Of a stretch of 64,000 nucleotides of DNA, positions 15,680 to 45,804 are shown piece by piece (the first letter of the stretch is position 1; each line of letters begins with the position of its first letter). The position numbers and the translations under genes are program-made. The stretch lies in contig RXJJ01000001.1 of the NCBI GenBank assembly GCA_003963145.1, positions 217,358 through 281,357 on the forward strand. Direction: 5' to 3'. A model generated the notes under the pieces. It saw nothing but the letters and a program-made list of their open reading frames with translations, was not told where the DNA came from and made no database searches. This stretch comes from Bradyrhizobiaceae bacterium (lineage in GTDB: Bacteria; Pseudomonadota; Alphaproteobacteria; Rhizobiales; Xanthobacteraceae).

Positions 15680-18073
15680 TCAATCCTGAATTTTGGAGAA
15701 ATCGGCAACTAAACGGGTAGCGTTGCGGATTTCACTCAGTAGGCAAAGGCGGTTTTCCCTCACCTTCGGGTCGTCATCGTTGACCTTCACCTTGTCGAAA
15801 AAGGCGTCCACGGCGGGGCGCAGCTTCGCCATCGCGCTCATGGCGGCGGCGAAGTCCTCCTTGGCCACGGCGGCGCCCGCTTCGGCCTTCGCCTGATCGA
15901 TGGCGACGGCGAGCTTTTTCTCTTCATCGAGTTTGTAGAGCTTGGCGTCCGGCGCGCCGCCATAGCTGCGCTTGTCCTTCTTCTCCTCGATGGAGAGGAT
16001 GTTGGACGCGCGCTTGGTGCCCGCCAGAAGGTTCTTGCCGTCATCGGTATCGAGGAATTTGCCGAGCGCGTCGACCCGGCGGACAACCATCAGAAGGTCG
16101 TCCTGCCCCTCAAGAGCAAACACCGCGTCCACCAGATCGTGCCGCGCGCCCTGATCGCGGAGCTGGACTTTGAGGCGGTCGGCGAAGAAGGGCAGCAAAT
16201 CTCTTACCACTTCATAGCGTTTCGCAAAGGGCGTCATCGTTAGCTCGCCGGGTGCCATTGCCCACGCTTTGCCACTTGTCCAAGCCTTCGTAATAACTCT
16301 GTATTTGCGCTCAGGGTCCGATTCCGTTTCATCCGTGATCCGAGGACTTGCCTCAGACTTAAAGCCGGCATCACCAAGCCGTTCAGTTTTTTCTGCACCA
16401 AATCTCAGGGTGCCGACCCAAATCTCGATGTAATTTTCATAAGCAAACTCAACTATGCGTCGCAGCTTGAACTCCATGCTGTTATCAAGAATGATCCTAA
16501 TCACACCCAGCGCCGCACGCCTCAGCGCAAACGGGTCCTTCGATCCTGTCGGCTTCTCGTTGATCGCCCAGAATCCTACCAGCGTGTCGATCTTGTCCGC
16601 GAGCGCGACCGCAATCGCGACCGGATCGGTCGGCACGCGGTCGTTCGGACCCTGCGGCTTGTAGTGATCCTCGATCGCCTGCGCGACGCTGGCATCCTCG
16701 CCCTGCGCCAGCGCGTAGTATTTGCCCATCAGGCCCTGCACCTCGGGAAATTCGCCGACCACTTCGGTGAGCAGATCGGCCTTGGCGAGCTTCGCCGCAC
16801 GCTTCGTCTTTTCAACGTCGGCGCCCACAAGCGGCGCGATCTCGGCGGCGAGCCGCTCGATGCGCGCGATCCGCTCGGCCTGCGTGCCGAGCTTTTCGTG
16901 GAACACGATGTTCTCGAATTTCGGCAGCCGGTCTTCGAGCCTTGTCTTGAGGTCCGTCTCGTAGAAGAACTTCGCGTCGCTCAGTCGCGCGCGGATCACC
17001 CGCTCGTTGCCCGCGATAATCGCCTTCCCGCCGTCGCTCGCCTCGATGTTCGAGGTGAGGATGAAGCGATTGGCGAGCTGATCTCCGCTCCCCCCGCCTG
17101 CGGCGGGGAGGGGTCGGGGGTGGGGGGAAGCCGCGGCGAGCGAGGAAGCGCCCCCCACCCTTGATCCCTCCCCACCACTATCGTGGGGGGAGGGAAACTT
17201 CACCACGAAGCATTTCTGGTTGTTGCGGATGGTGGCGCGGATCACCTCGCCCGGGATTTTCAGAAAGCTCTCGTCGAACGAGCCCATCAGCACCACCGGC
17301 CATTCGACAAGGCCCGCAACCTCGTCGAGCAGCCCTTCGTCCTCGACCAGTTCATAGCCCTGCGCGAAGGCGAGGTTTCTCGCCTCGGTGAGGATGATGT
17401 CCTTGCGGCGCTGTGGATCGAGCACGACCTTCGCCGCTTCCAGCTTCGAGACATAATCGTCGAACCGGCGCACCGAGAACTCGCCGGGCGACATGAAACG
17501 ATGCCCGCGCGTGGTCTGGCCGACTGCGACGCCCGGCATCTCGAATTTGACGATGTCGGGGTCTTCGGTCTCAAGCCCGAAGGTCGCGATGATCGAATGC
17601 AGCGGCCGCACCCAGGTCAGCGCGCCGTGACGCGCCGAGAGTTCGCCCCAGCGCATCTGCTTCGGCCACGGAAAGGTGCGCACGACAAGCGGCAGGATGT
17701 CCGCGATGACGTCGATGGCGGGACGGCCCGGCTTTTCGATCAGCGCGATGTAGAAATCGCCTTTCGGGTCCTTCTGGATTTTCGCTTCGTCCAGAGACTT
17801 CAGCCCGGCGGCTTTCAGGAATCCTTGAATGGCCGCGTCCGCGCCGCCAACCTTCGGACCCTTGCGTTCCTGCTTGAGATCGGGCTGGCGCGCGGGAATG
17901 CCGTGCACCGTCAGCGCAAGGCGGCGCGGCGTCACGAACGCCTTCGCGCCTTCATAGACGAGGCCCTCGGCGACGAGCTTGTCGGTGACCATCTTGCGCA
18001 GATCGTCCGCCGCCTTCGCCTGCATGCGCGCGGGAATTTCCTCGGAGAACAGTTCGAGCAGAAGATCTGGCAT
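15680..18073 (-). CDS. glyS: Glycine--tRNA ligase beta subunit carrying two in-frame inserts
   Basis: [64 protein letters not shown]; uninterrupted frame. Confidence 0.95.
17088..17195. repeat. Palindromic repeat element inserted in frame in glyS
   Basis: Two inverted arms around a 23-bp spacer; 17103-17127 is identical to 18162-18186 of the DUF559 unit. Confidence 0.85.
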
Positions 18074-18078
18074 TGGTT

Positions 18079-18516
18079 TTACTCCCCTCCCCGCACGGCG
18101 TCACCCTCCCCTTGAGGGGGAGGGTCGCCTGCCGAAGGCAGGCGCGCTTCCCCTCCCCCTTGCGGGGAGGGGTCGGGGGTGGGGGGCAACGCAGATTGAA
18201 TAGCTGCCAGCACGCCGTCGATATTGCTCAGCACATCATGATTCCAGAAACGCAAAACCCGGTATCCTCTTTCTTCGATGCGCCGGGTCCGATCCAAATC
18301 CGCCGCGTTGTCCGAATGCTGGCCGCCATCCAGTTCGATGACGAGTCCGGCGCGCAGGCTGGCAAAATCGACGACGAAAGCACCGATCACGGCCTGACGC
18401 CGGAAGTGCGAACCGCTCAGAACGATGTCGTGTCGAAGCCGATGCCACAACGTCCGCTCGGCATCGGTCGGCTGTGCACGCATCCGGCGGGCAAAATCTT
18501 GCAGATGATCGTCCAT
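18079..18516 (-). CDS. DUF559 / Vsr-like endonuclease domain protein
   Basis: [56 protein letters not shown]; the C-terminus is read through the repeat. Confidence 0.88.
18103..18144. repeat. Two extra hairpins next to the DUF559 unit
   Basis: ACCCTCCCC-TTGAG-GGGGAGGGT (18103-18125) and CGCCTGCC-GAA-GGCAGGCG (18126-18144). Confidence 0.7.
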
Positions 18517-18590
18517 GGCTGACGATTGAAACACACAGTCTATCGGCTGTGGACCCCCACCCCCGACCCCTCCCCGCAAGGGGGAGGGGA
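18149..18590. mobile_element. Putative mobile unit: DUF559 nuclease gene within perfect 37-bp terminal inverted repeats
   Basis: 18149-18185 TCCCCTCCCCCTTGCGGGGAGGGGTCGGGGGTGGGGG is the exact reverse complement of 18554-18590; mobility itself is inferred. Confidence 0.7.
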
Positions 18591-18629
18591 GATGCGGCTG
18601 ATTTTCCAAAATCATCGGACGCAAAGTCC

Positions 18630-19577
18630 TTACTCCGCCCGTCCCGCTTCGGTGTGCACCCATGCCTCGCCGCAGGCTTTCGCCAGTTCGCGCACGCGCA
18701 GGATATAGCTCTGCCGCTCGGTGACGGAGACCACGCCGCGCGCGTCGAGCAGGTTGAACACGTGGCTGGCCTTGATGCACTGGTCGTAGGCCGGCAGCGC
18801 CATCAGATGGCGCTCCTTCTTGCCGGGTTCTTTTTCGTTTTTTTGCCATCCCGCGGCGAGATAGTCGTTGCACGCCTTCTCGGCCATCCTGAACTGCTCG
18901 AACAGCATCGCGGTGTCGGAATATTCGAAATTGTGCCGCGAATATTCCTGCTCGGCCTGCAGGAACACGTCGCCATAGGTCACCTTCTCGGCGCCCTCGC
19001 GGCCGTTGAAATTGAGATCGTAAACACGGTCGACGCCCTGCACGTACATCGCGAGACGCTCGAGACCGTAAGTCAGTTCGCCCGACACCGGCGCGCATTC
19101 GACGCCCGCGACCTGCTGGAAGTAGGTGAACTGCGACACTTCCATGCCGTCGCACCAGCACTCCCATCCCAGACCCCACGCGCCGAGCGTCGGGCTTTCC
19201 CAGTCGTCCTCGACAAAGCGCACGTCATGCAGCGCGAGGTCGACGCCGATGGCTTTCAGCGAATTCAGATAAAGGTCCTGGATGTCGGGCGGCGAGGGTT
19301 TGAGGATCACCTGAAACTGATAGTAATGCTGCAGGCGGTTCGGATTCTCGCCATAGCGGCCATCCTTGGGACGGCGCGAGGGCTGCACGTAAGCCGCATT
19401 CCAGCGTTTCGGCCCCAGCGCGCGCAGCGTCGTCGCCGGATGGAATGTGCCCGCCCCCACTTCCATGTCGTAGGGCTGCAGGATCACGCAGCCATAATCG
19501 GCCCAGTAACGCTGCAGCGTCAGGATAAGGCCCTGAAACGATTTTTCGGGCCGCATGTGGCTGGGCAGGGAATCCAT
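18630..19577 (-). CDS. glyQ: Glycine--tRNA ligase alpha subunit
   Basis: [56 protein letters not shown]. Confidence 0.96.
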
Positions 19578-19847
19578 GATGTTTTTCGATGTGCCGGGGT
19601 CGGATTTGCCGGGACCGTATCGGTGCGGTCCCTCAATATCAAGACACGTCAACCATCGCGAGCCGCGTAAACCATCAATTCCAACGCCCTGTTAACCGCA
19701 GTTTCATCGCCGATCAAATGCAACCGATTCCGTTAGGAACTGCGCTGCTATGCCGGACTGATCGAACGAGAAGACCGGCATCAAGCCGGCCCGCCCTTTT
19801 CGTCCGCTGCGCGTGGGGCGCCGGACACGGATCAGAAAGGCCGGACC

Positions 19848-45655: not shown

Positions 45656-45804
45656 CTTTTCCCCTCTCCCCTTGTGGGAGAGGGTGGCGAGATCGAGTGA
45701 AACGAGAACGAGCCGGGTGAGGGGTAGGTTGAGCGACTAGTCAGCACCCCTCACCCGCCTTCGCTTCGCTCAGGCACCCTCTCCCACAAGGGGAGAGGGG
45801 AAAG
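45656..45804. repeat. Gene-less palindromic element (CCCCTCTCCCCTTGTGGGAGAGGGTG arms), copy 2
   Basis: 45661-45686 and inverted 45775-45800; near-identical to 33096-33250 in the opposite orientation. Confidence 0.85.

Follow-up and report, generated by a model that had tools for sequence, protein, structure and literature searches.

A DUF559 nuclease gene enclosed by inverted, putatively triplex-forming repeats at the glyQ/glyS junction of an Afipia genome

The unit at positions 18149-18590 of the window (the whole stretch of 64,000 nucleotides, nt, analyzed here) consists of a gene for a DUF559-family nuclease enclosed by two inverted repeat arms, and it lies between the host genes glyQ and glyS of an Afipia genome. 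From sequence comparison, the unit can be read as a triplex-repeat-armed DUF559 cassette whose nuclease acts on its own arms, a reading that we regard as about evenly balanced between right and wrong. The gene and its arms form one discrete heritable unit, which is gained, lost, replaced and occasionally copied to new sites. The arms and the nuclease co-diverge, and gene-less doublets of the same arm families insert independently.

The arms fit a known kind of bacterial repeat, the BoxC/PIT/TM repeats. These have been known since the 1990s, are found in hundreds of genomes and are linked to local rearrangement; we know of no function and no partner protein for them. DUF559 is, to our knowledge, a large nuclease family without an assigned role. 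If repeats and nucleases were specifically paired, both would be explained together, and DUF559 is the best candidate so far for the missing partner of these repeats. Next to REPIN/RAYT, the pairing would be a second example, with an unrelated mechanism, of an enzyme that lives with a repeat population of its own, and it would point to transposase-free DNA movement that starts from nicks at folded DNA. No description of it was found in the literature. DUF559 is one row in a table of predicted inversion targets (PMC9881135), and BoxC/PIT/TM repeats have been described without a partner protein, without a link to mobile elements and, for TM repeats in E. coli, as a source of instability with no enzyme invoked (PMC4666352, Holder et al. 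2015). New here are a series of empty, replaced and exchanged states and a long target duplication.

Overall structure of the unit

The source genome (G000; the other labels with G or L denote compared genomes or loci, G015 being A. broomeae ATCC 49717) has a size of 3.86 Mb, is 99.8% complete and contains some 3,700 genes. As stated in the preliminary description of this stretch, the segment 18149-18185 (TCCCCTCCCCCTTGCGGGGAGGGGTCGGGGGTGGGGG) is the exact reverse complement of 18554-18590 over 37 nt. The repeat does not extend further on either side. The 22-nt core of the repeat has four copies in the window, against 0.01 expected. glyQ, the DUF559 open reading frame (ORF) and glyS are all on the minus strand.

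The 368 nt inside the repeats had been described as a DUF559 ORF. The assignment to the family stands, with a Pfam match, but the ORF is not confined to the unit. Its 3′ part runs through the translated downstream arm and an arm remnant to a stop codon at 18079-18081, 5 nt ahead of the glyS ATG. As had been noted before, the unit contains no transposase. DUF559 is its sole ORF and the only one with a family match. The genome of G000 also has no match to the RAYT/Y1 transposase family (PF01797), with positive controls. The unit is a discrete one in a genome without any RAYT, which agrees with the earlier proposal of a RAYT-independent combination of nuclease and repeat.

The arms as triplex-type repeats

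The fold bears out the hairpin and G-rich tail that had been proposed for each arm: a 9-bp pyrimidine/purine hairpin is formed and the G-rich tail is left unpaired, in a folding model that allows Watson-Crick pairs only. The arm at 18554-18590, read on the minus strand, has the hairpin CCCCTCCCC-CTTGC-GGGGAGGGG, followed by a 3-nt loop and the tail GGGGTGGGG. The tail mirrors the purine stem (GGGGAGGGG, then GGGGTGGGG), and in the other cassettes of this genome the purine stem GGGAGAGGG is followed by the tail GGGTGAGGG. This mirror rule was tested on 333 hairpin instances located beside DUF559 genes. For asymmetric stems, the mirror reading is favored over the direct reading by 46 to 1. G is opposite G at 718 of 722 positions, and the base opposite A is T in 88 cases and A in 82. 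This pattern of pairing is the rule of a purine-motif intrastrand triplex.

The arms have the three blocks of a BoxC/PIT/TM repeat, namely a pyrimidine stem (CCCCTCCCC), a purine stem (GGGGAGGGG) and a mirroring third strand (GGGGTGGGG). They are also multi-copy: G000 has about 14 doublets as well as solo arms, and an Afipia genome may have 0-45 arms belonging to a single type. In sequence, the arms fit intrastrand-triplex motifs of the BoxC/PIT/TM type and not a new kind of repeat. They share with the published repeats the plan of pyrimidine stem, purine stem and mirroring G-rich strand, the short loops, the multi-copy occurrence, often in inverted pairs, and the tie to local rearrangement. 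Several arm types (CCCTCTCCCC..GGGGAGAGGGT.GGGGTGAGGGG) are almost the same as the E. coli TM consensus CCCTCGCCCCTCTGGGGAGAGGGTTAGGGTGAGGGG (PMC4666352), whereas the stem of the window arms, which are of type A (GGGGAGGGG), is unlike the E. coli TM stem. There is one further difference. The arms described here enclose a nuclease gene and share its divergence and its movement, while the published work has no protein partner.

Type-A arms (36 nt) are 92-100% identical between copies at synonymous divergences (dS) of 0.6 to above 2. Because the arms remain equally perfect where synonymous sites are saturated, the perfect repeat reflects constraint and not youth, and the 37-bp identity in the window is ruled out as the mark of a recent insertion. 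A role of the arms as terminator or promoter was also rejected, as a scan of the arms with promoter and terminator consensus sequences gave no matches. Published work on PIT elements likewise reports no promoter or terminator signal.

Association of DUF559 genes with arms

G000 has four DUF559 matches. Three of them are stand-alone genes, and all three are located between inverted arms, with the same layout and different sequences. The genome contains about 14 convergent arm doublets, of which 11 are gene-less and three are gene-bearing; the enclosed gene is DUF559 in 3/3. The frequency of arm-flanking had been suggested as a check on the association. In 19 Afipia and five related genomes, 30 of 36 stand-alone DUF559 genes are flanked by arms at a score of at least 14, and the six others comprise two at contig ends, two with diverged hairpin loops and two in other families. 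Among 79 loci from many phyla, the best flanking inverted repeat scores at least 16 in 51. The arms also co-vary with the nuclease, as had been anticipated: arm distance tracks protein distance (Mantel r = 0.41, 0/2000 permutations), and clades have arm types in common. All 19 sites are monophyletic on the cassette tree, with 18 changes.

A short gene might come to stand between two copies of a common intergenic palindrome by chance juxtaposition, given that G+C-rich palindromes are common at the gene ends of alphaproteobacteria and that the unit is intergenic. This explanation is already refuted by the shifted controls, 0/151 of which reach the scores of the 51 loci, and we give it practically no weight. 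DUF559 is moreover the gene in all three gene-bearing doublets among some 3,700 genes, and the junction has no repeat at all in 12 congeners.

Some loci outside the order show a different arrangement. In the Chloroflexota loci L119, L126, L140, L145 and L146, the polarity of the arms is opposite to that in Afipia, with the tail outward and the hairpin toward the gene, or whole doublets are present on each side.

Empty, occupied and replaced glyQ/glyS junctions

In 12 of 19 Afipia genomes, 1-7 nt separate the glyQ stop codon from the start codon of glyS, with no repeat whatever, and the empty-site alleles that were to be sought in close relatives therefore exist. A DUF559 cassette occupies the junction in 7/19, always co-directionally. 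The junction cassettes belong to types with differing arms, type A in G000 and G015, type B in G002, G017 and G008, and type C in G009 and G007. Type A is also found at glyQ/glyS in Afipia sp. OHSU_II-C1 (OHSU), in the metagenome-assembled genome (MAG) AGun1 and in a Nitrobacter, and a DUF559 gene is found there in G028, in a MAG (L075) and in a Rhizomicrobium MAG as well. On the tree of the adjacent glyS DNA, the distribution of occupied versus empty junctions needs at least seven changes.

Between types A, B and C, the nonsynonymous divergence (dN) is about 0.4 and dS is saturated, compared with a dS of 0.4-0.7 for the host glyS. It follows that the three types predate the genus and must have taken each other's place. 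This replacement is confirmed by nested relics of arms. Next to its type-A cassette, G000 retains the outer part of a type-C right arm; the type-B cassettes of G002 and G017 are accompanied by a type-C left arm, and the type-A cassettes of G015 and OHSU by a type-B right arm. The break-points of the relics are at or in the tail in 3/3 independent cases, and a succession from C to B to A agrees with the host clades. Judged from its match to type-C right arms, the remnant in the window (18100-18143) is the relic of an earlier occupant of the glyQ/glyS site; G007 is within the host clade of G000.

The cassettes of A. broomeae and OHSU_II-C1 differ by one mismatch in about 400 nt, compared with about 6% divergence in the flanks, and by this measure the exchange of the cassette between them is recent. 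A single junction between essential genes that is empty, occupied, replaced and recently exchanged within one genus is a good natural experiment, and this range of states makes the idea directly testable with defined substrates.

The co-directional placement in glyQS, noted earlier for the window copy, extends to 11/11 junction cassettes. No sigma-70-like promoter was found in a search inside the cassettes at the junction, and the DUF559 gene of the unit is probably expressed by read-through. In other families of the order (L060, L064, L066, L068 and L069), glyQ and glyS are 100-840 nt apart, and tblastn detects no DUF559 there.

A second site with long target duplications

A type-A cassette is also located after a CorC/HlyC-type gene in G002 and G018 and, in decayed form, in G015. 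All three cassettes at this site are accompanied by a direct duplication of the 3′ end of the gene. In G002 it measures 64 nt, with 100% identity, and in G018 it measures 94 nt, with 94% identity. Its left boundary, just past the far arm, is common to G002, G018 and G015, and about 26 cassette-free alleles of the site have a single copy of the duplicated stretch. The same layout is seen in a Dehalococcoidia locus (40-nt duplication) and in a Chloroflexi locus (34 nt). No target duplication had been visible at the window unit; the remark does not hold in general, as type A has one of 64-94 nt at this other site. Duplications of this length do not suit a classical transposase; they are compatible with nicks staggered over a wide distance, or with copying coupled to replication.

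The decayed cassette after the CorC-type gene of A. broomeae (L172; G015:C2, approximately 1251557-1252303) carries a deletion of its left arm and of two-thirds of the gene, from the 5′ end. The duplicated host DNA is extended there, with one more solo arm after it. In G036, all that occupies this site is a degenerate solo arm, which could be the product of recombination between duplicates. Long direct repeats are also present in L089, L093, L143 and L120. That of L089, from a Tardiphaga MAG, was rejected as a target duplication, since the locus has two cassettes in tandem. The same doublet follows each of these DUF559 cassettes, and the 3′ end of the gene is part of the direct repeat, which measures about 118 nt.

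Gene-less doublets

The three gene-less arm pairs that had been reported elsewhere in the window all exist, but they belong to other arm sub-families than the cassette (one B-like and two C1). The window copy is not visibly their source, as the arm types differ and G000 has no extra type-A arm. Two-armed gene-less relatives as such are well supported, and their own presence varies among related genomes. About 19 relatives lack the doublet at 33096-33250 in the orthologous position, while G031 has a different doublet there and G005 a solo arm.

The doublet inside glyS is located in a loop of the protein that is intact in 12/12 genomes with an empty junction and carries an insert in 8/10 genomes with an occupied one (raw Fisher p = 1.4e-4). 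In a phylogeny-aware comparison, four or five pairs point in the same direction and none in the opposite direction, with p of 0.06-0.125. At least two independent doublet insertions have occurred in this loop, with type-B arms in G000, G002 and G017 and type-A arms in G015, OHSU and AGun1. In five of these six genomes, the doublet matches the cassette located 0.9 kb away (B/B in G002 and G017; A/A in G015, OHSU and AGun1). There is no target duplication at the GlyS loop; instead, 13-18 nt of the target are replaced. The palindromic elements of Rickettsia are also palindromic repeats read in frame in an essential gene, as is the glyS doublet, although they belong to a different repeat family. 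We know of no enzyme gene associated with them. A third kind of event is found in the same GlyS loop of G009 and the Nitrobacter (loci L045 and L074), a 45-nt insert that is not a repeat (SGAASRTSL.DAAQ..G).

The co-occurrence of cassettes with arms of the same type had been fixed as a prediction beforehand, and the tests point in the predicted direction, with raw values of p = 0.03 for C1-type arms and p = 0.001 for type A.

The DUF559 nuclease

The match of the protein to Pfam DUF559 (PF04480) covers residues 5-110 and profile positions 3-108 of 109, with E = 1.7e-34 and 118.4 bits against a cut-off of 20.6. It also matches a solved DUF559 structure (PDB 3HRL) with E = 1.6e-18. The 18 columns conserved in at least 90% of 112 proteins are all kept in the window copy (18/18), including Asp50, Glu61, Asp63 and His67. 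The family residues are present as well, in the form of the Asp of the VDF motif, the E-x-D-G-x-x-H motif and the RRQ motif. The ratio dN/dS for type-A DUF559 is about 0.1, with a range of 0.05-0.19. By these residues and ratios, the protein is functional, with intact catalytic-type residues under strong constraint.

A Pfam scan to E = 0.01 finds no Vsr family match, but just DUF559 and a sub-threshold match to MTES_1575, and the NCBIfam match of the protein is below its cut-off. No C-5 cytosine methyltransferase (PF00145) is found in G000, with positive control genomes, and this rules out the classical Vsr/Dcm reading for this genome. The enzyme is likewise lacking in G001, G003, G004 and G007, yet all four retain cassettes. 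A role in a defence system was rejected, as there is no match to a PADLOC family, only matches at E of about 0.004-0.009 to parts of giant proteins.

Every Afipia genome also encodes one ORF of about 400 residues with a SpoU/TrmH-type RNA methyltransferase and a C-terminal DUF559 domain (L022:634-1821; C8:267508-267807 in G000). The fused domain is degenerate, having IEIVHNDE in place of the family IE.DGG.H, and is not flanked by arms. Its sequence makes it look like an old, fixed, in-frame domain.

Possible mechanism

If the nuclease acts on the arms, it would recognize arms of its own type, probably once replication or transcription lets the G-strand fold, and would nick within the tail or next to it. 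Breaks would arise where opposite strands are nicked, either at the two inverted arms or at one arm and a site close by. Repair of the breaks by copying from another copy would explain both the cassette-limited replacement and the nesting in resident arms. Alternatively, the breaks might be filled in, which would explain the long target duplications. The same activity could occasionally seed gene-less doublets. Nuclease activity is credible for the DUF559 family, as Caulobacter VsrA was shown to cause DNA damage in vivo (PMC12907096).

Several observations weigh against an action of the nuclease on its own arms. The support comes from sequence comparison, and we know of no armed DUF559 with a mapped site of binding, nicking or cutting; VsrA, itself a DUF559 protein, is tied to cytosine methylation and mismatch repair (PMC12907096). 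G000 holds no type-A arm beyond the two of the cassette. The co-occurrence of cassettes and arms loses its significance in phylogeny-aware pair tests, which are underpowered and never point in the wrong direction. G012, G017 and G018 hold 9-19 C1-type arms without a matching cassette, and 5/12 genomes with type-A arms show no type-A cassette pair. The doublet spacers have no similarity to the cassette ends and contain no gene relic, a comparison that favors neither deletion derivatives nor insertion targets as the nature of the doublets. In addition, divergence between cassettes of one type is about that of their hosts, and each site is monophyletic; movement is therefore rare and the cassette is mostly inherited vertically. 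Rare old insertions with vertical descent and loss would give the same picture.

A much wider proposal is that DUF559 proteins are the dedicated enzymes of BoxC/PIT/TM repeats throughout bacteria and make up an unrecognized class of nuclease-driven, transposase-free elements. They would nick their own folded arms, and the unit and the doublets would be copied by nick-initiated, replication-coupled repair, leaving long target duplications and allowing in-frame landings in essential genes. We consider this proposal tentative and rather doubtful. If it were true, the published 'genomic instability' of triplex repeats would be the work of DUF559.

Alternative explanations

The cassette could also encode a free-standing homing-type endonuclease that cuts the empty glyQ/glyS target, the gene being copied in by break repair with an occupied allele as template, after DNA transfer. 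The arms would then be accessory, perhaps as ribosome-binding purine runs, target disruption or crossover points, and not the substrate. Such an enzyme would account for the monophyly of every site (18 changes on 19 sites), for the fidelity with which a related group (A, B, C and the G028 copy) keeps to glyQ/glyS across genera and families, for the patchy occupancy with clean empty sites (seven occupied and 12 intact empty junctions at one conserved site in the genus) and for the cassette-limited identity tract between two species. A homing endonuclease with the Vsr fold is known, I-Bth0305I (PMC3239194), with which Vsr, DUF559 and 3R3P have been grouped in one structural clade (PMC3424549). 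Vsr-fold homing endonucleases (EDxHD, I-Bth0305I; PMC3239194, PMC2677866) resemble DUF559 also in having lineages that are faithful to sites within or next to conserved genes, where occupied alleles contrast with clean empty ones. There are clear differences, however. The cassette has no intron or intein features; it stands between genes, but inside conserved terminal repeats. The protein of 110 residues lacks the extra N-terminal DNA-binding domain of I-Bth0305I, and its motif is E-x-D-G-x-x-H and not EDxHD. Pure homing needs none of the properties of the arms, which are conserved far beyond neutral expectation, follow the triplex rule and form families that spread without the gene. New cassettes are nested in remnants of resident arms and show no clean allele replacement, the target duplications of 34-94 nt at some sites are not expected from gene conversion, and the strong long-term purifying selection is unlike the usual decay cycle of homing genes. 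Overall, homing as the main activity of the cassette seems to us distinctly improbable.

Somewhat unlikely in our view, but deserving of attention, is that DUF559 is a nickase of the host for repair or structure processing (Vsr-like mismatch repair, or removal of triplexes and hairpins at forks), with the repeats being moved by host processes. TM repeats would be unstable by themselves and be generated, moved and rearranged by host replication and recombination without DUF559, while the arms may regulate or insulate the gene. The strong purifying selection and mostly vertical descent agree with this explanation, as do the doublet families that persist in genomes without a matching cassette. 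TM repeat instability in E. coli has been published without an enzyme (PMC4666352), and VsrA, which like the Vsr repair nickase shares the fold of the window nuclease, damages DNA in vivo in dependence on cytosine methylation (PMC12907096). A host nickase leaves unexplained, though, why the genes enclosed by doublets are only ever DUF559, why the arm type co-diverges with the nuclease, and why gene and arms are exchanged, replaced and duplicated as one block. Moreover, G000, in spite of its near-complete assembly, has no C-5 methyltransferase, nor have G001, G003, G004 and G007, and cassettes are kept in all of them. Up to E = 0.01, Pfam assigns the protein to DUF559 and not to Vsr, and the work on VsrA does not discuss repeats (PMC12907096).

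Comparison with REPIN/RAYT and transposable elements

In its layout and life-style, a cassette with a nuclease that acts on its arms would work like the REPIN/RAYT pair, by analogy, with an unrelated enzyme and a putatively triplex-forming repeat. With REPIN/RAYT (PMC3116915, PMC3337134) it shares an enzyme gene that is present once and has the repeat of its genome on both sides in inverted orientation, inverted doublets without a gene that are dispersed over gene ends, a largely vertical inheritance and purifying selection on the enzyme. In comparison, the enzyme here is a Vsr-fold PD-(D/E)XK nuclease instead of an HUH Y1 transposase, with a triplex motif as its repeat in place of a plain hairpin, at a low copy number of 2-45 arms per genome. 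The unit of gene and arms here is also polymorphic between species.

Miniature inverted-repeat transposable elements and insertion sequences resemble the cassette in their terminal inverted repeats, short gene-less derivatives and insertion at gene ends. The cassette differs from them in having no transposase of any known class. It also has no short duplication of fixed length, with none at the GlyS loop and 64-94, 40 and 34 nt elsewhere.

Features of the locus

The coordinates of the features in the window are collected in Table 1. The G-rich stretch directly before glyS may be a decayed duplicate of the last 20 nt or so of glyQ, and it is likely the ribosome-binding region of glyS. GGAGTAA is found both at the 3′ end of glyQ and in this stretch, and the target itself is G-rich and arm-like, so that a duplication and an arm sequence look alike here.

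Table 1. Positions of the cassette, the neighboring genes and the gene-less doublets in the window.
Feature	Position	Strand	Remarks
glyS, downstream host gene	15680-18073	-	
Gene-less two-armed element, type-B-like arms, 23-nt spacer	17085-17193		in frame inside glyS, replaces loop DPKTGK; fold z = -4.0
G-rich stretch ending GGAGTAA, directly before glyS	18079-18099	-	seen by eye
DUF559 ORF, 145 residues, ATG at 18516	18079-18516	-	domain-coding part 18187-18516
Type-C right-arm remnant	18100-18143		outer hairpin and linker hairpin, tail missing; matches type-C right arms of G009/G007 at the same junction
Downstream arm, type A, inverted copy of 18554-18590	18149-18185		starts 2 nt past the end of the DUF559 domain
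Leader between upstream arm and ATG, 37 nt	18517-18553	-	73-76% conserved in type-A glyQ/glyS copies of G015, OHSU and AGun1
Upstream arm, gene-proximal, type A	18554-18590		exact reverse complement of 18149-18185; 9-bp hairpin, free tail
glyQ, upstream host gene	18630-19652	-	empty alleles: stop codon 1-7 nt from glyS ATG
Gene-less doublet, C1 arm type (CCCTCTCCCCTTGTGGGAGAGGGTG ... GGGTGAGGGG)	33096-33250		matches cassette at genome C1:329792, not the window cassette
Second gene-less doublet, C1 arm type	45656-45804		

An in-frame ATG is located at 18613-18615 on the minus strand, 33 codons upstream of the DUF559 start and ahead of the upstream arm. The protein may start there, with the translated arm as its N-terminus. 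By eye, G015, OHSU and AGun1 likewise have an in-frame ATG before the upstream arm. The translation of glyS also contains an unusual stretch within 16201-16500.

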